DNA from: an uncultured Actinomycetes bacterium
Lineage (GTDB): Bacteria; Actinomycetota; Actinomycetes; Streptosporangiales; Streptosporangiaceae
Assembly: GCA_963755815.1 (NCBI GenBank)
Contig: CAVWLF010000001.1
Coordinates: forward strand, 1 to 64,000
DNA length: 64,000 bases
Reading direction: 5' to 3'
Shown piece by piece: positions 4,280 to 44,700 of this stretch. The notes beneath the pieces were generated by a model, which ran no database searches, was not told the DNA's origin, and was given only the letters and a program-made list of their open reading frames with translations. A program made the translations under genes and the position numbers. The stretch's first letter is position 1. Each line of letters opens with the position of its first letter.

Positions 4280-4936
4280 TCAGGACTCCAGGTAGCGGAG
4301 GACGGCGAGTACCCGGCGGTGGTCGGCGTCTGAGGGGGGCAGGCCGAGCTTGCTGAAGATGTTCCCCACGTGCTTTTCGACGGACCGCTCGGAAACCACC
4401 AGGATCGCGGCGATCGCGGCGTTGGAGCGGCCTTCGGCCATCAGCGCCAGCACCTCGCGTTCCCTGGTCGTGAGCGTGCCGAGCCCGTCGTTGCGGCGGC
4501 TGGCGCCGAGCAGTTGCGTGACGACCTCCGGGTCGAGGGCGGTGCCGCCGGCGGCCACCCGGCTCAGCGCCTCGACGAACTCCTCGACGTCGCCGACCCG
4601 GTCCTTGAGCAGGTACCCGACCCCCGCTGCACCGCCGCCCGACGCCGCGCCGAGCAGGTCAGCCGCGTAGCGGGTCTCGATGTACTGAGAGAACACCAGC
4701 ACCCCGGTCTTGGGGTGGTCGCGGCGGATGGCGATCGCGGCGCGCAGGCCCTCGTCGGTGTAGCCGGGCGGCATCCGCACGTCCACCACGGCGGCGTCTG
4801 GGTGGTGCTCGTCCACCGCCGCTAGCAGATCGTCGGCGTTACCAACGGCGGCCGCCACTTGGTGGCCGCTGTCGGTCAGGATTTCGGCCAGGCCCGCTCG
4901 CACTACGGCCGAGTCTTCGGCGATCACGATCCGCAT
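4280..4936 (-). CDS. NarL/LuxR-family two-component response regulator
   Basis: MRIVIAEDSAVVRAGL... receiver domain plus a C-terminal GerE HTH (LTTREREVLALMAEGRSNAAIAAILVVSERSVEKHVGNIFSKLGL). Start taken at ATG 4936; the ORF-track upstream extension is Cys/Trp/Pro-rich and overlaps the kinase gene. Confidence 0.9.
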   Translation of the reverse strand: MRIVIAEDSAVVRAGLAEILTDSGHQVAAAVGNADDLLAAVDEHHPDAAVVDVRMPPGYTDEGLRAAIAIRRDHPKTGVLVFSQYIETRYAADLLGAASGGGAAGVGYLLKDRVGDVEEFVEALSRVAAGGTALDPEVVTQLLGASRRNDGLGTLTTREREVLALMAEGRSNAAIAAILVVSERSVEKHVGNIFSKLGLPPSDADHRRVLAVLRYLES

Positions 4937-4952
4937 GGGGGCTCCGGTTCGG

Positions 4953-12416: not shown

Positions 12417-12660
12417 GCAACGCGTCCTTTCGCCGACCGTGGGTACCAGCCACATCCTGCCGTAGCGGAGAGAACCTTCCGCGCCGCTGCGGCAAGCTCA
12501 GCGCGGGGCCCGGCCTGAGCCAGTGGGATGCGGTCCGAGGGAATCCGCCAGCGCCCGCGGCGCCTGGCCGCGCCAGGCATCCGTGATCAGTTCCGCGAGC
12601 AGTGTAGGCACCAGCCGGAGCATCGCCGGCCGGCAGCGGGCTGCCGATAATTTTTAACGG

Positions 12661-12855
12661 ATGGCCCGGCGTCGGTCGCCCGGCCCGGCGACCCCGCCCC
12701 GCGGGAGTGCCATCCCGGCCCGGGCAGGTTGACCTCCAGCGCACGTGAGGTACGACGATGGTCCGGCGCCGGTCGCCCGGCCAGGCGGCCCGCCCCGCGG
12801 GAGTGCCGTCGCGGCCCGGGCAGGTTGACCTCCAGTGCACATGAGGTACGACGAT
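12661..12855. repeat. tandem duplication, 97 + 96 bp (third unit starts at 12854), covering the 5' region of the MFS gene
   Basis: Unit 1 is 12661-12757 and unit 2 is 12758-12853. Both start ATGG(C/T)CCGGCG and end CAGGTTGACCTCCAG(C/T)GCAC(G/A)TGAGGTACGACG. The next copy begins ATGGGCCG. Confidence 0.85.
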
Positions 12856-12861
12856 GGGCCG

Positions 12862-25280: not shown

Positions 25281-27434
25281 TTACGCTTCTTCTGCTGACA
25301 GCGGGGCCCGGCCAGCGGCCGGGTGATCCCTGGTGGCCGGCTGGCCGGACCGGCTCAATGGCATCCAGACCCGCATGGCCTGGCCGTCGCGGTTGTCCCA
25401 CTGGAAGTAAGGGACGGCAACCGCCGTTACGGGACCGCCGCCGGGCTCGTCCGGCAGCGGGGCATAGGGCAGTCCGCCGCGGCTGACTGACGGCAGCCGG
25501 ACCGCGGCCGCCTCGATGATCACGGTCGGGCCCACGCCCGGCAGCCTGGCCTCGCGCTCGGTGAGGCCGCCCGCGCCCGGGCCGGCGGAGCCGCCGCCGG
25601 CGCCCTCCGGGCTCTCGCCGCCAGCGCCCGCCGGGCTGAGCGCGAGATCTTCGACACTCACCCCGCTGGGCTGGTCGGCCTGCTCGAAGCAGTAAGTGAG
25701 CGGGCCCCGTTCTACCGCCACGGTGCCCCGCAACGCGTCAATCCGCCGGTTCGGATACGTCAGGCGCGGCCTGACGTCCATCGACAGGGACAGCACGTCA
25801 TCCGGCTGCCAGCACCGTCGCACGATCAGGTAACCGTGGTCATCGGCGGCCGAGGCAACCGGCTGGCCGTTGACGCTGACGGACGCATCGCGGCACCAGC
25901 CCGGGATCCGCACCGCCAGCCCGCACTCGGCGCCGGGCGCACGGCGCACCCGGAGGTCAGCGGTGCCGGTCCAGGGGTAGCTGGTGGCGACGTCCAGGGC
26001 GAAGTCGCCCTCCGGCAGCCGCGCGCTGACCTGCGAGCCGGTTAGCTGGTGCAGGTACAGCACGTCGCCGGCCACGGTCGCGATGTAGTGCTCAAGCGAC
26101 GCCATCAGCCGCATGATGTTCGGCGGGCAGCAGGCGCAGGAGAACCATTCCCGGCGGCGCCCCGGATCGTCGTCCTCGAAGTGATCATCACGCCGCTGCA
26201 GCGGGTTGACGTAGAAGAACCGCCGCCCGTCCGCGGACAATGCCGCGGCGAAGCCGTTGTAGAGCACTCGCTCCATCAGGTCCGCGTACCGTGCGTCGCC
26301 GGTCGCGAGCAGCAGCCGCCAGCTCCACTGGAAGCTCGCGATCGCGGCGCAGGTCTCGTTGTAGGCGCGGTCCGGCGGCAGCTCGAAGGCGTCGCCGAAT
26401 GCCTCGCCCGAATGCCGGGACCCGTTGCCGCCAGTGAGCGCGGTCTTGGTGGCGACCATGTCCTCCCAGCGGGCGATCGACGCGGCCAGCAGTTCGGGGT
26501 CGCCGGTCTCGACGGCCACGTCGACGACGCCGCTCTCCAGGTACAGTGCCCGGACGACATGCCCGACCTCGGTCGGGGACTCGCGGACGGGCAGGTGATC
26601 CTGCAGGTAGCGGATGCCGAAGCCGGAGTCGCCGATCATGCCGTGGCCGCGCTGGTTGATGAACTGCGTGGCCAGCTGGAGATAGCCGGGCGTGCCGGTC
26701 TGCCGGTATAGCTCCACCAGGGCCGTCTCGATGATCGGGTGACCGTCCAGCCCGGCTTCCTGGCCGAGGAAGACGTCCACCAGGTGATCGGCGAAGCGCC
26801 GGGCCACCTCCAGCAGCCCATCATCGAACGTCCTGCTGGTTGCGACCGCGGCCTGGATCAGGTGGCCCGCGCAGTACAGTTCATGGCTCGACTCAAGCCT
26901 GGCGTAGCGCCGGGCTCCGCTGGCCTGGATGCAGGAGTTCAGGTATCCGTCCGCCTGCTGCGCCTTCGCCAGCAGGGACGTGACCTCGGCGGCGAAGGCG
27001 GCCAGCCCGGGATCTGCCGCGTGACCGAGCTCCCAGCCGATCGCCTCCAGCGTCTTGTAGATATCGGAGTCCATGAACGCCGGGCCGCGGTACCCCTCGC
27101 CGGTCCCGGCGATAGCCAGCCGCAGGTTGTCGAGGTTGCCCGCCGCCTGCAGCTGGCGCAGCGCCAGCGGAAGGCTCGCCGCGCGATTCCGCTGCTGCCA
27201 GTCGTACAGCAGGCCGCTGGTAAGCCGGACACCGCTCCCGACCGCACTCGTCGTGCCCGCATCATCCCCGGCCGCACTCGTGCCGTCGGCGCCCGTGCTG
27301 GCCAGCGGCCGGTGGGCCACGGCGGCCGACGCCGTCGGGTGTACCGGACCGCGGGCCGGTACTGCTCTCTCCGCATTAGCCACGTGCGCGACTCCGCTGC
27401 TGCTGACCGGGTGACCCTGGCTGCCGGAAGCCAC
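25281..27434 (-). CDS. glycoside hydrolase family 127 (beta-L-arabinofuranosidase, DUF1680)
   Basis: Characteristic blocks YNETCAAIASFQWSWRLLLATGDARYADLMERVLYNG, FFYVNPL and WFSCACCPPNIMR (the Cys-rich catalytic/zinc region of HypBA1-type enzymes). Confidence 0.88.
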   Translation of the reverse strand: MASGSQGHPVSSSGVAHVANAERAVPARGPVHPTASAAVAHRPLASTGADGTSAAGDDAGTTSAVGSGVRLTSGLLYDWQQRNRAASLPLALRQLQAAGNLDNLRLAIAGTGEGYRGPAFMDSDIYKTLEAIGWELGHAADPGLAAFAAEVTSLLAKAQQADGYLNSCIQASGARRYARLESSHELYCAGHLIQAAVATSRTFDDGLLEVARRFADHLVDVFLGQEAGLDGHPIIETALVELYRQTGTPGYLQLATQFINQRGHGMIGDSGFGIRYLQDHLPVRESPTEVGHVVRALYLESGVVDVAVETGDPELLAASIARWEDMVATKTALTGGNGSRHSGEAFGDAFELPPDRAYNETCAAIASFQWSWRLLLATGDARYADLMERVLYNGFAAALSADGRRFFYVNPLQRRDDHFEDDDPGRRREWFSCACCPPNIMRLMASLEHYIATVAGDVLYLHQLTGSQVSARLPEGDFALDVATSYPWTGTADLRVRRAPGAECGLAVRIPGWCRDASVSVNGQPVASAADDHGYLIVRRCWQPDDVLSLSMDVRPRLTYPNRRIDALRGTVAVERGPLTYCFEQADQPSGVSVEDLALSPAGAGGESPEGAGGGSAGPGAGGLTEREARLPGVGPTVIIEAAAVRLPSVSRGGLPYAPLPDEPGGGPVTAVAVPYFQWDNRDGQAMRVWMPLSRSGQPATRDHPAAGRAPLSAEEA

Positions 27435-27523
27435 GATCGGAGGAATAGGTTTTCCTCAGCAAGGTAGAGTCTGCGAATGTTGCCGTCAAGCCTGTACAGG
27501 TTCTCTTTTATTACGATATTAAG

Positions 27524-28663
27524 ATGGTGGCCGAGGCGTTAGATGGGAGCAACCGTTTGCCTGGCAGGGAAGCTGACCCGAAGCGGGCGACCATCAGGGA
27601 CGTCGCGGCGCAAGCCGGCGTCTCGATCGGCACTGCCTCGAAGGCACTCAACGGTCAGGGAAAGCTGCGCCCGGAGACCCGGGACCGGGTCGCCGCGGCG
27701 GCGCGCAAGCTGGACTTCGCGCCGAATGTCCTGGCCCGGGGTCTGCTCGCAGGAAGAACCTACACCGTGGGCGTCATCACCACGGATAGCTTCGGGCGGT
27801 TCAGCATCCCGGTCATGCTCGGTGCCGAGGACGCCCTGGGAGCGGGCCAGATTTCGGTCTTCATGTGTGATACCCGCGATGACCCGGCCCGGGAGCGGCA
27901 GTACCTGGAGATGCTGCTGAGCCGCCGGGTGGACGGCCTGATCGTGACCGGCCGGCGGATCGAGCCGCGGCCGAGCATCGGCCGGACGCTGGGAATCCCC
28001 GTGGTCTACGCGATGACGCAGTCCCTCGACAGCGACGAGCCGGCGATCCTGCCCGACGACTATGGCGGCGGCATGATGGCGGCCAGGCACCTGCTGGCCG
28101 ATGGCCGGACCCGGATCGGGCATATCACCGGTCCCGAGCGATTCCTGGCCGCGCGCAAGCGCGCGGGGGGTTTCTGCGAGGCCGTCGCCAGCGCCGGCGT
28201 GCAGTTCTCGCCGCATGATGTCCTGTACGGCGAGTGGAGCGAGCGGTGGGGCCGCGAGGGGGTTCGCATCCTGCTGCGGGGTTCCCCGGACGTGCAGGCC
28301 ATCTTCTGCGGCAGCGACCAGATAGCCCGCGGCGTCTCCGAGACGCTGCGGTTGCTCGGCCACCGGGTGCCTGATGACATCGCGCTGGTGGGCTTCGACA
28401 ACTGGGAGCCCATGGTTGCCGGCGCGGATCCGCCGCTCACCAGCATCGACATGTGCCTGGAGGACGTCGGGCGGACGGCGGCCGAGCACTTGCTCGCAGC
28501 GATCAACGACGAGCCGACGCATGGCGTGCATACCGTGCCGTGCCGTCTGGTCATCCGCAGATCAGCCGGCCTGGCCGAGAACGGGCCCGCTGACCTGGCC
28601 GGCAGCAGGTCCGGTGAGCGGCCGGATGGCGGGCCGGCCGTCCAGCCCGGCGGCGCCGGATGA
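27524..28663 (+). CDS. LacI family transcriptional regulator
   Basis: N-terminal HTH ATIRDVAAQAGVSIGTASKALNG plus a periplasmic-binding-protein-like sugar-binding core. Divergent from the GH127 operon. Confidence 0.9.
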   Translation: MVAEALDGSNRLPGREADPKRATIRDVAAQAGVSIGTASKALNGQGKLRPETRDRVAAAARKLDFAPNVLARGLLAGRTYTVGVITTDSFGRFSIPVMLGAEDALGAGQISVFMCDTRDDPARERQYLEMLLSRRVDGLIVTGRRIEPRPSIGRTLGIPVVYAMTQSLDSDEPAILPDDYGGGMMAARHLLADGRTRIGHITGPERFLAARKRAGGFCEAVASAGVQFSPHDVLYGEWSERWGREGVRILLRGSPDVQAIFCGSDQIARGVSETLRLLGHRVPDDIALVGFDNWEPMVAGADPPLTSIDMCLEDVGRTAAEHLLAAINDEPTHGVHTVPCRLVIRRSAGLAENGPADLAGSRSGERPDGGPAVQPGGAG

Positions 28664-28721
28664 CGCGGTGGCGCCGCAGCGGCGGCACGCTGCCCGGCGC
28701 CATCGCGGGCTGGAACCATCG

Positions 28722-28846
28722 GCACGATCGCGGATCACAACTACCAGCACGATCACAGATCAGAACCACCAGCACCGCCGCGGGTCAGAGCTCCGGGCAC
28801 GATCACGGATCAGAGCTACCGGCACGATCGCGGATGAGAACTTGCG
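28722..28846. repeat. 5 x 25-bp perfect-phase tandem repeat immediately upstream of the ABC ATPase start
   Basis: Units start at 28722, 28747, 28772, 28797 and 28822. Consensus GCACGATC(G/A)C(G/A)GATCA(G/C)A(A/G)C(T/C)ACC(A/G). Unit 3 is degenerate. The period is not a multiple of 3. The array ends 10 nt before ATG 28857. Confidence 0.9.
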
Positions 28847-28856
28847 GAGGGACGGC

Positions 28857-30143
28857 ATGTCCACGGTGACAGCCGAAGGGCTGACCAAGGTCTACGCGGG
28901 TGGCGTCGAGGCAGTCAACGACCTTGACCTGCAGGTCGACGACGGAGAGTTCGTCGTGCTCGTCGGGCCGTCCGGGTGCGGCAAGACCACGGCGCTGCGC
29001 ATGGTAGCGGGGCTGGAGGAGATCACATCGGGCACGCTGCGGCTCGGTGACCGGGTGGTTAACGATCTCTCGCCGCGCGAGCGTGACGTCGCCATGGTCT
29101 TCCAGAACTACGCGCTTTACCCGCATCTGAGCGTGCACGAGAACATCGGCTTCGCGTTGCATAGCAGGAAGGTTGCTAAGGTCGAGCGGGACTCGAAGGT
29201 GCGCGCCGCGGCGGCCGTGCTCGGCCTGACCGGGGAACTCGATCGCAAGCCGCGGCAGCTCTCGGGCGGTCAGCGGCAGCGCGTCGCGATGGGCCGGGCG
29301 CTCGTGCGCGAGCCCTCGGTCTTCCTGATGGACGAGCCGCTGTCCAACCTCGACGCCAAGCTGCGGATCCAGATGCGCTCGGAGGTGCTGCGGGTGCACC
29401 GGCGGATCGGGGTCGCGACGCTGTATGTCACGCACGATCAGACCGAGGCCATGACGATGGGCGACCGCGTCGCCGTGCTCCGCTCCGGAACGCTCCAGCA
29501 ATGCTCGGCGCCCAGGGAGCTTTACGACTCGCCGGCGAACATCTTCGTGGCTACGTTCATCGGCTCGCCATCGATGAACCTCTACCGGGCCGGCCTCGAA
29601 TCCGCCGGCGAATCCGGCACCATCGTGCTCGGTTCGCAGCGGCTGACGCTCCCGGCCGCGGTCATGCGGCAGAACCCTGGCCTCGCCCGTTACCAGGGCC
29701 GCGCAGTCATCGCCGGGATCCGGCCTGAGCACCTGGTCGACCAGGCGATACTCGGCACCGCGCCAGAGCCGGGCGCGAGTCTCACCGCGACGGTCGACCT
29801 CGTCGAGGTCCTCGGCAGCGAGCAGCTTGTCCACTTCACCATCGACGCGCCCGGGGTTCGCGGGGAAATGGAAGAGCAGGACCAGTCCTTGGCCGGAGCC
29901 GCGCCCGGGCCCGGGACCGGGACCGGAGCCGGGCCCGGGACCGGAGCCGGAGCCGGGACTGGGGAGGGCGAGATCGTCGCCGCGGCGGTAGCGGAGGGTG
30001 TGGCCAGGATCGACCCGCGCTCGGGGATCCGCGCCGGGGAAAGGGCGGTCTTCGGAGTGGACGTCCGGCGGATCCATTTCTTCGACCCGGACAGTGGAGT
30101 CGCGATCGCGCCGGCCAGCCCGACGACCAGCACTGCCCGCTGA
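28857..30143 (+). CDS. sugar ABC transporter ATP-binding protein (MalK/MsiK/UgpC-like)
   Basis: Walker A GPSGCGKTT, signature LSGGQRQRVAMGRAL, Walker B VFLMDEPLSNLD, and a C-terminal TOBE-like domain with a Gly/Pro/Thr low-complexity insertion. Start at MSTVTAEGLTKVY with GGAGGGA upstream. Confidence 0.9.
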   Translation: MSTVTAEGLTKVYAGGVEAVNDLDLQVDDGEFVVLVGPSGCGKTTALRMVAGLEEITSGTLRLGDRVVNDLSPRERDVAMVFQNYALYPHLSVHENIGFALHSRKVAKVERDSKVRAAAAVLGLTGELDRKPRQLSGGQRQRVAMGRALVREPSVFLMDEPLSNLDAKLRIQMRSEVLRVHRRIGVATLYVTHDQTEAMTMGDRVAVLRSGTLQQCSAPRELYDSPANIFVATFIGSPSMNLYRAGLESAGESGTIVLGSQRLTLPAAVMRQNPGLARYQGRAVIAGIRPEHLVDQAILGTAPEPGASLTATVDLVEVLGSEQLVHFTIDAPGVRGEMEEQDQSLAGAAPGPGTGTGAGPGTGAGAGTGEGEIVAAAVAEGVARIDPRSGIRAGERAVFGVDVRRIHFFDPDSGVAIAPASPTTSTAR

Positions 30144-30298
30144 CTGCTGGCACCGTCGCCCCGACTGCCAGCACCGCCCCGGACGGCTAGCACCGCTCGG
30201 ACTGCCACCTCGGCCCCGGATTGCCCCCCGCCCGGATTGCCAGCACTGGGCCGGATTGCCAGCACTGGCCCGGCCCGCCCCGGATTGCCAGCACCTCC
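30140..30298. repeat. degenerate ~19-nt tandem array (about 8 copies of CCCGGA(T/C)TGCCAGCAC)
   Basis: Copies read by eye from the ATPase stop codon onward. The three best are at 30231-30249, 30250-30268 and 30280-30298. Confidence 0.6.
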
Positions 30299-30492
30299 CG
30301 GCCGCGGGCCGGGCACGACCGGGGTTTGCGAGGAGCAGCGCGGACCGTGTGCAGCCGATTCGCGAGGAGCGGGAAGGCCACGAGACCGGACGGCGTTGAC
30401 GCTGGCGCGGACGGGTGCCCACCCGGTGGTGGGCCGGACCGCCCCGGGCGGCCGCTGGCTCCGGATGACCTCGCCGATCGCGGAAAGGCTGA

Positions 30493-31293
30493 ATGTTCAT
30501 GGCTGATGTCCTGCCGGACCCCTCGAAGATGACGCTGGACGACCCATTCGCCGTGCTGTCCGGACCGCTGGCGGGGACGTCCCGGCTATCGCTGCAGGTC
30601 GTCGAGGCGGGGCTGCTCACGCCGCATATGCGCCGGCTGCGACTGACCGCGCCGGAGCTTGCCGGTTTCAGCTATGCCGCCGGCCAGGACGTGATGCTGC
30701 TCGTCGACGTCGAGGGCAATCGCCCGGTCCGCCGCCGGTACACCATCCGCGCGCTGGAGGCGGCCAGCGCGATGCTGACCCTCGACATCGTCCTGCACGG
30801 AGACGGCCCAGGTGAGCGCTGGGTACGGGACACGAGCCCGGGAGACCGGATCGAGGGGATCGGGCCCCGGGGGAAGATCACGACGGCGGGAGGCGCCGAC
30901 TGGCACCTTTTCGTCGGCGATGAGTCGGCACTGCCCGCGATCTTCCGGATGGCCGAGTCGCTGCCCGGCGGCACCCCGGTGCGGGTGCTGCTCGAGATTC
31001 CCGGACCAGAGGACGAGCAGGACCTGCAGGCGGCAGCGAGCACGCAGGTCACCTGGCTGCACCGCGGTGACGGGCGCGCGGGCGAGCCGGGTGCGCTGGC
31101 CGCGGCCGTCGGCGAGGTGCCGCTCCCGGCCGGGCGCGGACATGCCTACCTGCTGGGCGAGGCAAGAGTCGTGTCGCGGCTCCGCGAGGTGCTGGCAGCG
31201 CGCGGGCTCGAACCGGATCAGATGTCCCCCAAGGCCTACTGGGGCCGCGGGCGGGCGAACGCCAGCCACGGCGAGCCGGCCAGGGACGCCTGA
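30493..31293 (+). CDS. siderophore-interacting protein (FAD-binding ferric-siderophore reductase family)
   Basis: RRYTIR FAD-binding motif, plus GDESALPAI and a C-terminal NAD(P)H-binding-like part (GEARVVSRLREVL). Confidence 0.85.
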   Translation: MFMADVLPDPSKMTLDDPFAVLSGPLAGTSRLSLQVVEAGLLTPHMRRLRLTAPELAGFSYAAGQDVMLLVDVEGNRPVRRRYTIRALEAASAMLTLDIVLHGDGPGERWVRDTSPGDRIEGIGPRGKITTAGGADWHLFVGDESALPAIFRMAESLPGGTPVRVLLEIPGPEDEQDLQAAASTQVTWLHRGDGRAGEPGALAAAVGEVPLPAGRGHAYLLGEARVVSRLREVLAARGLEPDQMSPKAYWGRGRANASHGEPARDA

Positions 31294-31352
31294 CGCGAGA
31301 CGCGGAGACTTAAGGCCCAGGGGCCCCAGTCCGCAGCGGAGGCACCGCATTC

Positions 31353-32294
31353 TCAGCCGAGTGCGGCCGGCCATTCCGCGCCGGTGGCCGCGCGGATCTC
31401 GGCCGGGCGCGGCAGCGCTACCTGAGTGCCCCGGCGGGTAGTCGCGGTGGCCCCCGCCGCGCACGCGGCCCGCAGCGCTTCGGCCGGAGTTACCCCCGCC
31501 GCCAGCATCACGCCGAGCGCGGCCACGAAGGCGTCACCGGCTCCGACGCTGTCCACGCTGCGGACCCGGAATCCGGGTACCGACTCGGCCCCGGCGGCCC
31601 CGGCCAGCACCGCTCCGTGCGACCCCGCCGTGACCACCGCGTGGCGAGCGCCAATGAGAGCCAGCGCGGCGGCCGCGCTAGCCGCGTCCCGCAGGCCGGC
31701 CACGGTCCGCCCGAGGATCGCGGACGCCTCTGACTCATTGACCACCAGCCAGTCAACGCCCGCCGACAGCAGGGACTCGGGCTCCGCCGGCACCGGCGCG
31801 AGGTTGAGCAAGCAGGTCATGCCCCGGTCGCCGGCCTGGCTGAGCACCGCCGCGAGGACTTCGGCGGGGATCTCGGCGGAGAGCACCAGCAGGCCGGCCG
31901 GGCCGGAGAGCGCCGCGGCGGCCTCTTGCTCTCCGGCCTCGCCGTTTGCCCCCGGCGCGACCGTGATCATGTTCTCGCCGGCCGCATCGACGGTGATCAG
32001 CGCCAGGCCGGTAGCGCAATCGGGCACCGCCCGCACTGAGGCGAGACCGATATCCTCCGCCCGCAGCGCTGCGGTGATCCGGTCGCCGAACTCGTCCTCG
32101 CCCACGCAGCCGACCATCCGCACCGCCGCGCCAAGCCGCGCCGCGGCGACCGCCTGATTGGCGCCCTTTCCGCCCGGCGCGATCACCGCCCCGGCACCCA
32201 GGATCGTCTCGCCCGGCCCTGGCAGCCTGCGGACAGACACCGAGATGTCCATGTTCAGGCTGCCCAGAACAGTCAGCCGGGGCTGGCTTCGCAT
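31353..32294 (-). CDS. rbsK: ribokinase
   Basis: N-terminal LTVLGSLNMDISV...PGETI....PGGKGANQAVAAARLG and C-terminal DSVGAGDAFVAALG, the PfkB/ribokinase signatures. Confidence 0.88.
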   Translation of the reverse strand: MRSQPRLTVLGSLNMDISVSVRRLPGPGETILGAGAVIAPGGKGANQAVAAARLGAAVRMVGCVGEDEFGDRITAALRAEDIGLASVRAVPDCATGLALITVDAAGENMITVAPGANGEAGEQEAAAALSGPAGLLVLSAEIPAEVLAAVLSQAGDRGMTCLLNLAPVPAEPESLLSAGVDWLVVNESEASAILGRTVAGLRDAASAAAALALIGARHAVVTAGSHGAVLAGAAGAESVPGFRVRSVDSVGAGDAFVAALGVMLAAGVTPAEALRAACAAGATATTRRGTQVALPRPAEIRAATGAEWPAALG

Positions 32295-32321
32295 GATCCT
32301 CCTCAGGGCCGGGCTGGGGCC

Positions 32322-32415
32322 GGGGCCAGGGCCGACCCCTGGGCCAGGACCGACCCCGGGGGCCAGGGCCGAGCCGGGACCAGAGCCGAACCGGGGCCAG
32401 AGCCGGGCCGGGCCG
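32322..32415. repeat. degenerate ~18-nt GC-rich tandem repeat upstream of rbsK
   Basis: GGGCCAGG(G/A)CCGA(C/G)CC-type units repeated about 5 times, starting 28 nt upstream of the rbsK ATG. Confidence 0.5.
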
Positions 32416-32693
32416 GCCTAGCCGGGCACTGCGCCCGCCTCCGCCGACCTGCCCGCCCCGGATCTCATCATTGTCTGGCCTGCCGCCGCTGGCCCGGTGC
32501 CCGGGTCACCGGCCGGGCACCAGGCCGGGGCACCAGGCCAGCTACCCGCCCGGGATGGAACGGGCAGGAGCCCGGTTCTGGATAAATAACAGCGAGTCAT
32601 GCCAGAACAACTGCCCGTTCTTTCTCGATATGAGCAAAGCTGCTCCATAATTGGACGATCCGCTAGCAATCGGGGTCGGAGGGAGCGCAACCC

Positions 32694-42544: not shown

Positions 42545-44700
42545 CCACGCCGGCCGCCACGGTCGAGCCGGCCCGGTCAGCGGCCGTCTCCGGTCCCGCC
42601 TCGCGGGAATCGATCACGCTCTGATCGGCCGCTTTCATCGCCGGGCAGCGCCGCCCGCGCGGTATACCCGCACGCCGCCCGCGCGGTATACCTTCACGCC
42701 GCCCGCACGGTGTACCTTCACGCCGTCCGGCCGGTATACCTTCACGCCGTCCGCGATGTAGCCGAGCCGGAAGCCGGTCTCGTGCAGATAGCGGATGGCC
42801 GGCCGGGTCCGGCCGTGCCATCTCCAGACCAGCACCCAGCCGATGTCCAGGTGGCGCGCGTCCAGCCGGGCGGCCGCCAGCTGCGCCGGGGTGATCTGCT
42901 GGCCGTGCTGGACGGCCACCAGCTCGGCGAAGAAGGCGTGCTTCCTGGCCGCGGCTACGGTCGGGGCCGGTACCCGGGACAGGAAGCCCACCGCGCGCGG
43001 ATGCCCGTCGGCAGTCGCCAGCACCTGCGCCTCCGGATCGAACTGGTCACCGTAGGCGCCAGTTCCGCCCCGGAGGCCGTACGGGATATCAACCACGAGT
43101 GACCCGGAATGGTCCGCGGCGATCGGCCGGTCGATGGCCGGCGGCTGGTGGCGATGGACCCAATGCCAGGATTGCCGGACCAGCCGGCTTCCAGCATTCC
43201 GAGCGCCAGTACGACGACGATGGCGGGGGCTGCGTGGTAGCGCAGCCAGTTCACCGCCGCGCCGGCCAGCAGGGCGGCGGGCACCATGCCCAGCATCAGG
43301 ATCCGGGCCGGCTCCCGGAAGCCGGACAGCCCGGGGATGCGGACGAACCAGGTGTACGGCATCACCGCGGACACCCGCACGCCGTCCAGGGTGGTGGCGT
43401 CCGGGACGAAGATATGGTTGCCGACCCGGATTACGGGGCCAAGGGCCATGACCGCGCAGCCGAGCCAGAGCAGTGCCAGCAGCCACGCGCTGCGCCGCCG
43501 CCAGGCGGCCAGCAGGCCAGCCACCGCCAGGACGCTCAGCACCAGGCCGTAGGTGGGGATCCCGTCGCCGATCCGGCCGCCGTAGATGAACCCCGGCGGG
43601 CCGTGCAGCCCGAACGCGGTCACTCGCGGGGAGAGCTCGAACATCCGGGGGAAGATGACGTCGTTCCCGAGATACGACCCGCCGAGGACGAGCTTCGGGA
43701 TAGTGGCGCCGCCGGATCTGGTCTGCTGGGCGATGGCGATGAGCTGCGGGCTGGCGACCAGCAAGGTCACCAGCCCGGCCAGCGCGGCCGGCCACAGCTT
43801 CGCCACCACCGGACGCCGCACCAGCCACGGCACCAGCGCCGCGCACGCCAAGATGACCACCAGCACGGCCATCTCCTGATCAGTCAGCAGCGCCCCGCCG
43901 GCCACCACCCCCAGGACCACCGCCCGCCGCCACCCCGGCCGCCGCGTCAGCCGCACCGCGGCCTCCAGCGCCAGCGGCAAGAACAACGCCCCCGCGGCCA
44001 GGTTCAGGTGATACCAGGACCGCCACGTCAGCATCGACGACAACCCGAAAAACGCCCCCGCCGCGATCGCGCCCACCTGCGAGGGCAGCCACAACCGCGC
44101 CACCCGGTACATCGCATAACACAGCAACCCCGGCATCACCACCGACAGCAGGTTGTACGACGCACTCGGCCCGAACACCACCGTCACCGGCATCATCACC
44201 ACGCCCGGCAGCGGCATCAGCGCATGCAACCCCAGCTGAGCCCCCGCCGGAGCATCGATATAACGGGTAAACCACGGATTACCCAGATGCTCCACCTGCC
44301 GCGCAACCCACCAGAACCCCCACACGTAACTACCCGCATCACGCGTCGCCGGCAACCGGCCCGCCAGATACGTCACCCGCGGCCAGCTCACCGCCATCCC
44401 CGCCGCCACAAACCCAGCCAGCACCCCCAGCTGAACCGCCACCGGACCACGAACCACCCGGAAAACCCGCCACCACCCGAACCCGCCCGGCCCGCCACCC
44501 CGCGGCCCGGCATCCGGCCCCCCGACCGGAGCCCTGACCGCCGCACCCACGCCGGGCGGCCGCACCTCAGCCGGCCGCACACCGGCCGGCGTTACCGGCG
44601 AGCTAGCCGCCGGACCCGGCCCGCTCAGTGCGGCCGGCCCGGGACCACCCGCCGCCACGGCCGAGCCGGCCCGGTCAATGGTCTGTGCCGGGCCGGAGGC
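40721..44700. repeat. about 2.02-kb tandem duplication (two gene-length units)
   Basis: Offset is 2021-2022 bp. The ORF track shows identical translated runs of 262 aa and identical 131-aa ORFs (41859-42254 = 43880-44275). This gives an identical block 41687-42472 = 43708-44493, flanked by visibly diverged sequence. Confidence 0.9.

Follow-up and report, generated by a model that had tools for sequence, protein, structure and literature searches.

In this work we have examined a short tandem array in the spacer between a LacI-family regulator gene and a sugar ABC-transporter ATPase gene, within a stretch of 64,000 nucleotides (the window) from an uncultured member of the Streptosporangiaceae. 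The array is, with good probability, a minisatellite (VNTR) that was generated by slippage in an intercistronic spacer and that carries no sequence-specific function. Its contiguous units fall within the 10-100 nt of minisatellites and stand above chance, their number varies among close relatives, and unexpanded alleles exist. The gene pair also occurs without the array, the repeat is absent elsewhere in the DNA that was searched, and the array itself lacks structure. Judged from the comparison of relatives, it is not a conserved regulatory device, and the best reading is that it is neutral or at most tunes expression.

The array occupies positions 28722-28846 on the plus strand, where five units of 25 nt follow one another directly, exactly in phase and free of indels, their first positions being 28722, 28747, 28772, 28797 and 28822. 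The first-pass annotation had described it in these terms, and both the sequence and Tandem Repeats Finder (TRF) bear this out; the program reported 28722-28842 with a period of 25, 4.8 copies, 73% matches and a score of 130, against a top tandem-repeat score of at most 74 in Markov simulations. The consensus proposed in that annotation fits units 1, 2 and 4 perfectly (0 mismatches), whereas unit 5 departs from it at 3 positions; it matched four times in the window against 0 times after dinucleotide shuffling of the window. Unit 1 (28722-28746, GCACGATCGCGGATCACAACTACCA) has the same sequence as the first unit of a relative, L058, and is followed by unit 2 (28747-28771, GCACGATCACAGATCAGAACCACCA). 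The middle unit had been called degenerate, correctly so: unit 3 (28772-28796, GCACCGCCGCGGGTCAGAGCTCCGG) has 7 mismatches to our own consensus and resembles a degenerate unit, GCACCGCCGACCAGGACTGCCG, in relative L059. Unit 4 (28797-28821, GCACGATCACGGATCAGAGCTACCG) and the first unit in the two-copy allele of L064 differ at one position, and unit 5 (28822-28846, GCACGATCGCGGATGAGAACTTGCG) is found in every allele, including the single-copy one; it is the sole unit in L060-L063 and has an identical copy in L024. At the 5' edge, a partial unit resembling the tail of a unit (GAACCATCG, 28713-28721, plus strand) precedes the array, and a period-50 row of TRF begins at 28713. At the other end, the array stops 10 nt before the ATG of the ATPase gene (28857-28859), as noted before. 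The Shine-Dalgarno sequence GGAGGGA of that gene lies at 28846-28852 on the plus strand, 4 nt 5' of the ATG; this motif is kept in all window-type alleles. The array was also rightly taken to be non-coding and distinct from a CRISPR array, its units being contiguous with no unique spacers between them. It is not an assembly artefact, because three more contigs, obtained from three samples, match the 241 nt spanning it with 100% identity.

The genes around the array form a locus for sugar utilisation. The minus strand carries two ABC permease genes, a solute-binding protein (SBP) gene and a GH127 beta-L-arabinofuranosidase gene, and the plus strand carries, divergently, the LacI-family regulator gene (27524-28663, or from 27557 if it starts at TTG; Pfam LacI and Peripla_BP_1/3), a 193-nt spacer and then the MsiK/UgpC/MalK-type sugar ABC-transporter ATPase gene (28857-30143; Pfam ABC_tran, OB_MalK and TOBE_2), whose homologues bear the name 'multiple sugar transport system ATP-binding protein'. 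The TTG at 27557 is probably the true start of the regulator gene, because the frame from the ATG at 27524 meets a TGA in L024. Homologues carry the names of metagenome-assembled genomes of Streptosporangiaceae bacteria, the window matches ENA metagenome contigs, and a plasmid search by megablast of the region returned generic ugpC matches only. Iterons were considered and rejected: there is no rep gene, the neighbours being genes for GH127, LacI, the ABC ATPase, a siderophore-interacting protein and PfkB.

What does the regulator respond to, and how widely is its junction with the ATPase gene shared? In distant relatives the regulator orthologue is followed by araB-araD-araA (L007 4001-8975, L008 4001-8859); there the LacI orthologue overlaps araB, which encodes an FGGY kinase, and araD and araA come next. 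Because of this arrangement the regulator is probably arabinose-related, that is, an AraR-like regulator responding to arabinose or arabino-oligosaccharides, and for the same reason the regulator-ATPase junction is specific to the clade of the window. The presence of the ATPase gene in the place of araBDA in this clade points to a rearrangement at the 3' end of the regulator gene. The C-terminal tail of the regulator beyond about 28550 is unconserved and differs among relatives. In the LacI homologues P0068, P0032 and P0083 the tails after CRLV.R are likewise hypervariable in length (328-556 aa overall), several of them being unrelated tandem peptide repeats (AGAELAGADV..., PETRQSAG..., APHTAG...), and the 3' end of the regulator gene looks like a general repeat hot spot.

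The evidence that bears most directly on the nature of the array comes from the same junction in related uncultured Streptosporangiaceae contigs. The LacI gene served as the first anchor and gave loci with araBDA next to it; the junction was then traced via the ATPase gene, and syntenic loci were identified by this gene together with other members of the cluster. The nucleotide identities to the window are given here for the LacI core and the ATPase gene, in this order. L024 (98.4% and 96.5%) has four units, more homogeneous than those of the window (90% matches), one of them 26 nt long. In L058 (98.5% and 97.0%) one unit is followed by a 35-nt degenerate block and two units, which we counted as about 4. 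L064 (95.8% and 94.9%) has two units and a gap of 117 nt between the genes, and L060-L063, one population in four samples (about 98% and about 94.6%), have exactly one unit and a gap of 93 nt. L059 (91% and 93%) has one unit together with the degenerate relative of unit 3 mentioned above. The first-pass annotation had suggested comparing the number of units between strains, and the comparison gives about 1, 2, 4, 4 and 5 units at the junction (L060-L063, L064, L024, L058 and the window, respectively), with flanking genes that are 94.6-98.5% identical in this close set and 91-93% identical for L059. It had also offered the array as a length-variable spacer between promoter and gene, and of its three readings this is the one that survives, supported as regards length by the 1 to 5 units among relatives.

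Two further groups of relatives manage without the 25-nt repeat. In L026 (about 90% for both genes) there is no spacer, and the LacI stop codon TAG lies inside actagaggaggcaaaccGTG, 12 nt before the ATPase start; because of this allele we regard the array as dispensable and the gene pair as operon-like. In L025 (90.5% and 87.7%) the ribosome-binding site actagaggaggcaagccTTG is kept, and between the LacI stop and this site lies an unrelated 26-nt repeat, TTCAGCAGCGCGCCCGCGCAACCGTC, at 4811-4940 of that contig, in 5.0 copies with 94% matches. Five JGI contigs (L065-L069), whose LacI protein is identical to that of L025 and whose flanks are about 99% identical to it, carry the 26-nt repeat in 4, 2, 4, 2 and 4 copies. 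Across these loci both repeat families, the 25-nt and the 26-nt one, behave as VNTRs, and neither is required for the gene pair.

These copy numbers should be read with the nature of the contigs in mind. L060-L069 are JGI contigs, and if they are short-read assemblies their copy numbers may be understated by repeat collapse, which is plausible for the near-perfect 26-nt array and unlikely for the window-type array, in which the longest exact stretch that one unit shares with another is about 16 nt. Among the ENA contigs, L002, L025, L026 and L058 have split gene calls for GH127, SBP or LacI, which is consistent with residual indel errors. Because the split genes point to such errors, differences of 1 nt in unit length, namely the 26-nt unit in L024, the additional 1 nt in L065 and a 24-nt unit in L064, are not to be over-read.

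How might the array have arisen? We hypothesize that it started from a 25-nt segment just upstream of the ATPase ribosome-binding site, which slipped-strand mispairing or unequal recombination would have duplicated head to tail in the lineage of this strain. The LacI and ATPase genes are most likely co-transcribed, since they lie only 93 nt apart in the single-copy allele and 12 nt apart in L026, and the array would then be situated within intercistronic mRNA, between a stem-loop and the Shine-Dalgarno sequence. This stem-loop, a GC-rich element of 44 nt without a U tract (28664-28707, plus strand), lies directly 3' of the LacI stop and has a predicted minimum free energy of -38.3 kcal/mol when folded alone. 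Its sequence is kept in L024, L058 and L060-L064, where the changes are single and non-compensated. It may act as a terminator that lacks a U tract, as an element for processing or stability, or as an obstacle to replication which favours slippage beside it. Under the minisatellite explanation, the sole effect of the array would be a longer unstructured spacer, growing from 12 nt in one relative to 93 nt with one unit and 193 nt in the window. Such lengthening should uncouple translation of the ATPase from that of LacI, and it may slightly shift the output of the ATPase; otherwise the array would be neutral or nearly so.

The last point leads to the main rival of the minisatellite explanation, in which the copy number is itself under selection and the length or composition of the spacer sets the amount of ATPase. 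Such tuning could act by uncoupling from LacI translation, by providing an unstructured standby site for the ribosome after the stem-loop, or by altering the stability of the mRNA, and slippage would then create heterogeneity in transporter energisation at the level of the population. In its favour, two independent repeat families at this junction differ in copy number even among very close strains. The array also abuts the Shine-Dalgarno sequence and is less GC-rich than its flanks (61.6% vs 70.8%) and predicted to be less base-paired, with a mean unpaired probability of 0.42 vs 0.20-0.26 in the flanks, and there is a precedent in the promoter tandem repeats of Mycobacterium tuberculosis (PMC12817950). 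However, predicted accessibility of the Shine-Dalgarno sequence does not follow the copy number and hinges on the choice of transcript window: for the window it is 0.26 or 0.69, and for the natural alleles it ranges from 0.25 to 0.74. Moreover, alleles with 0 or 1 unit exist, and tandem arrays are common and labile at many places in the lineage. No special selection is needed, then, because such arrays are common and labile across the lineage, and we consider a selected, tunable spacer possible yet rather improbable.

The repeat load of the lineage is indeed considerable. In the window we counted 17 TRF clusters (score of at least 70, period of at least 10), about 100 times the 0.17 that second-order Markov simulations gave; the non-coding ones include 12660-12861, 28713-28846, 30119-30312 and 32306-32427. 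A second non-coding array on the plus strand, with 17-19-nt units (CCGGATTGCCAGCAC / CGCCCCGACTGCCAGCAC), extends from the last codons of the ATPase gene to 170 nt downstream of it (30119-30312); among relatives it has 5.3-8.6 copies in L060-L064, is replaced by other repeats in L024 and has no counterpart in L025. The ATPase gene itself contains a coding repeat at 29893-29963 (periods 6, 18 and 24), which forms a linker rich in G, A, P and T, and the protein has 428 aa in the window vs 412-422 aa in close relatives, the length of the linker being variable. The 25-nt array is thus one example among the many labile repeats that this lineage carries. By a SATFIND-like criterion (PMC6749651), which asks for four occurrences of an exact decamer within 800 nt, one cluster of the window qualifies, namely the array downstream of the ATPase gene; the 25-nt array does not, and for this reason we make no numerical comparison with that survey.

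Other arrays in the window deserve a brief description. The divergent region between pfkB and a SpoIIE-HATPase gene contains arrays at 32306-32427 (17-18 nt) and 32499-32554 (13 nt). The first of these, next to the pfkB ribosome-binding site, starts about 12 nt 5' of the gene, and its counterpart in L024 is shorter by about 40 nt. An AT-rich block at 32583-32650 (CTGCCCGTTCTTTCTCGATATGAGCAAAGCTG.TCCATAATTGGACGA), 5' of the SpoIIE/HATPase_c_2 gene, hardly differs between the window, L024 and L025, in contrast to the remainder of the spacer, and probably serves as a promoter or regulatory site. At 12660-12861, again in a divergent intergenic region, a 96-nt unit is present 2.1 times (90% matches), each copy containing TTGACC and then ...GAGGTACGACGATGG; a promoter and start region may have been duplicated here. 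On the minus strand, a 24-nt repeat at 42649-42755 gives four DGVKVYR-like peptide copies in an open frame that runs past the in-frame stop of the upstream gene (42955-42957), which may reflect a frameshift, a pseudogene or a separate small gene.

Could the units instead be binding sites? The first-pass annotation had considered an iterated binding array for the LacI-type regulator or another factor. In such an array each GATC-N3-GATC core would be bound by a protein that controls the ATPase gene. In the strain of the window and in L024 the units agree better in their 5' half, GCACGATCNCNGATCA, than in their 3' half, and three of the six GATC-N3-GATC sites of the window fall inside the array. 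Conservation from unit to unit is, however, expected from recent duplication alone, and the GATC pairs have not been kept in relatives. That annotation had assigned the pair to four units; it is exact in only three of them (1, 2 and 4), unit 5 having GATCGCGGATG instead. GATG is found in every terminal unit, and the second GATC is missing from the single-copy allele and from all terminal units. In relatives the GATCs are mutated to GGTC and GAGC in L058 and to GACG in L059. At the level of the whole array, the region is missing in L026, reduced to a single copy in L060-L063 and replaced by a different repeat in the L025 clade. With a spacing of 25 nt, about 2.4 helical turns, neighbouring sites would in addition not face the same side of the DNA.

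A conserved candidate for the site of this regulator lies elsewhere. The PurR-box-like palindrome AGCAACCGTTTGCC at 27548-27561, a candidate LacI-type operator, overlaps the probable TTG start of the regulator gene and is conserved in the window, L024, L025, L059, L007 and L008, and its position suggests autoregulation. No second exact site occurs in the window, and with up to 3 mismatches no similar site was found in or near the array. The divergent region between GH127 and LacI to which it belongs (27435-27561) is highly conserved even in the distant L007 and L008 and contains GGAATAGGTTTTCC, the perfect palindrome CCTGTACAGG and AGCAACCGTTTGCC. With the conserved palindrome at the regulator's own start and no relative of it in the array, and with the losses and mutations seen in relatives, an iterated binding array is very unlikely.

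A structured RNA leader built by the repeats, whether riboswitch, attenuator or protein-binding RNA, had also been suggested, and the array, abutting the Shine-Dalgarno sequence of a transporter gene on its 5' side, would be well placed for it. A search of 27000-31500 against Rfam at E values up to 1 gave no relevant family, only a chance-level match to an sRNA inside the LacI gene. The array folds no better than its shuffles (z = +0.82 as RNA and +1.46 as DNA), and the z value of -1.66 for the whole spacer of 217 nt is owed to the separate stem-loop, the one strong structure in this spacer. As the array is moreover unconserved in relatives, we regard a structured leader as the least probable of the explanations weighed here. 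No sigma-70-like promoter or intrinsic terminator was found in 28300-30700, and no TANNNT was seen by eye in the units; this check covered promoters of the sigma-70 type.

One feature of the spacer recalls the mycobacterial MIRU elements, which are described as carrying an ORF coupled to the downstream start and as inserting at start codons (PMC12548453). A frame of 69 codons (28660-28869) has an ATG that overlaps the LacI stop (ggATGAc), spans the whole array and ends 10-13 nt inside the ATPase gene. A short frame of this kind could link the upstream stop to the downstream start and pass translation through the insert. The frame is intact in L024, and the distance from the ATGA to the ATPase ATG differs from that of the window by 24 nt in L024 and by 15 nt in L058, both multiples of three. 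However, a TGA interrupts the frame in L058, and the homologous frame of L059 lies in another register. In the window the frame ends 13 nt past the ATG and not in a -4 overlap, and the 25-nt unit is not dispersed in the DNA searched. The plus-strand frames of the unit contain no stop codon apart from a single TGA, in unit 5, so that open frames are to be expected anyway at 71% GC. That both differences are multiples of three has a probability of 1 in 9, and indels of 1 nt cannot be trusted in these assemblies. Given the broken frame in L058 and the shifted one in L059 we dropped the MIRU-like bridging frame, which we hold to be very improbable.

The first-pass annotation had recognized that a dispersed genome-wide repeat would speak against a role tied to this position. 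Such dispersal was not seen in the DNA covered, which comprises the 64 kb of the window and two collections that do not hold this strain. The window contains no other copies of the 25-mer. Searches with the exact pattern GCACGATCNCNGATCANANCNACC, which is strict and misses diverged units such as that of the single-copy allele, gave 15 matches in genome_contigs and 31 in metagenome_contigs, all of them isolated, in unrelated taxa and without a neighbouring unit, and we treated these as chance matches.

What, then, does the array mean? As a dispensable VNTR at a single locus it is of little weight, and annotations as an operator array or a riboswitch should be avoided. It is a ready strain marker for this uncultured Streptosporangiaceae population. 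Of wider interest is that intergenic and linker minisatellites appear to be unusually dense and labile in the lineage: the ATPase gene has a VNTR on each side and a third inside, and sister clades have unrelated VNTRs at the same junction. Perhaps the junction is a repeat hot spot that acts as a tunable, contingency-like locus, at which the unrelated 25-nt and 26-nt minisatellites arose independently and differ, from 1-2 up to 5 copies, between near-identical strains. That two unrelated arrays at one junction have nearly equal periods and share a maximum of 5 copies could reflect selection for spacer length rather than neutrality. This idea is tentative and we would give it a rather small chance. 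If it is true, the length of the spacer would set the level of a shared MsiK-type ATPase that powers sugar ABC importers, sugar uptake would be heterogeneous in the population, and tandem-repeat expression switching, known mainly from pathogens, would be extended to free-living soil Actinomycetota.

It is useful to place the array beside known systems. The operators of LacI-family regulators are palindromes of 14-18 bp with a central CG, such as the PurR box GCAAACGTTTGC. The array resembles them in that it lies near a LacI-family gene and its unit contains short self-complementary GATC tetramers, but the unit has no LacI-type palindrome, is unlike the candidate at 27548-27561 and is unconserved at orthologous loci. 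MIRUs, with units of about 40-100 nt, share with the array that they are actinobacterial repeats between co-oriented genes of an operon, beside a start codon, and an open frame crosses the array here too. Their units are, however, longer. MIRUs are also dispersed over many loci and have an ORF coupled downstream (PMC12548453), whereas the unit of the array is 25 nt long, occurs at one locus only in the DNA searched, and the bridging frame is unconserved. For M. tuberculosis it has been proposed that the copy number of promoter tandem repeats changes in a phase-variable manner and thereby affects expression (Modlin et al. 2025, PMC12817950). Those repeats are, like ours, variable in copy number, located upstream of actinobacterial genes and polymorphic between close strains, but their units carry promoters (PMC12817950), whereas no promoter-like sequence of the sigma-70 type was found in the 25-nt unit. 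The 25-nt array also differs in that it probably lies inside a bicistronic transcript.

The closest counterparts are the bacterial intergenic VNTR loci used in MLVA typing, for example the ETR, QUB and MIRU-VNTR loci of M. tuberculosis. The array differs from them in belonging to an uncultured soil lineage of the Streptosporangiaceae, in having a short unit of 25 nt at one locus, and in the second, unrelated 26-nt VNTR that occupies the same junction in a sister clade. In other respects the likeness is close: the units are non-coding, arranged head to tail and tens of nucleotides long, their number varies between close strains with near-identical flanks, some units are degenerate and the terminal one is conserved, and the array as a whole is dispensable.
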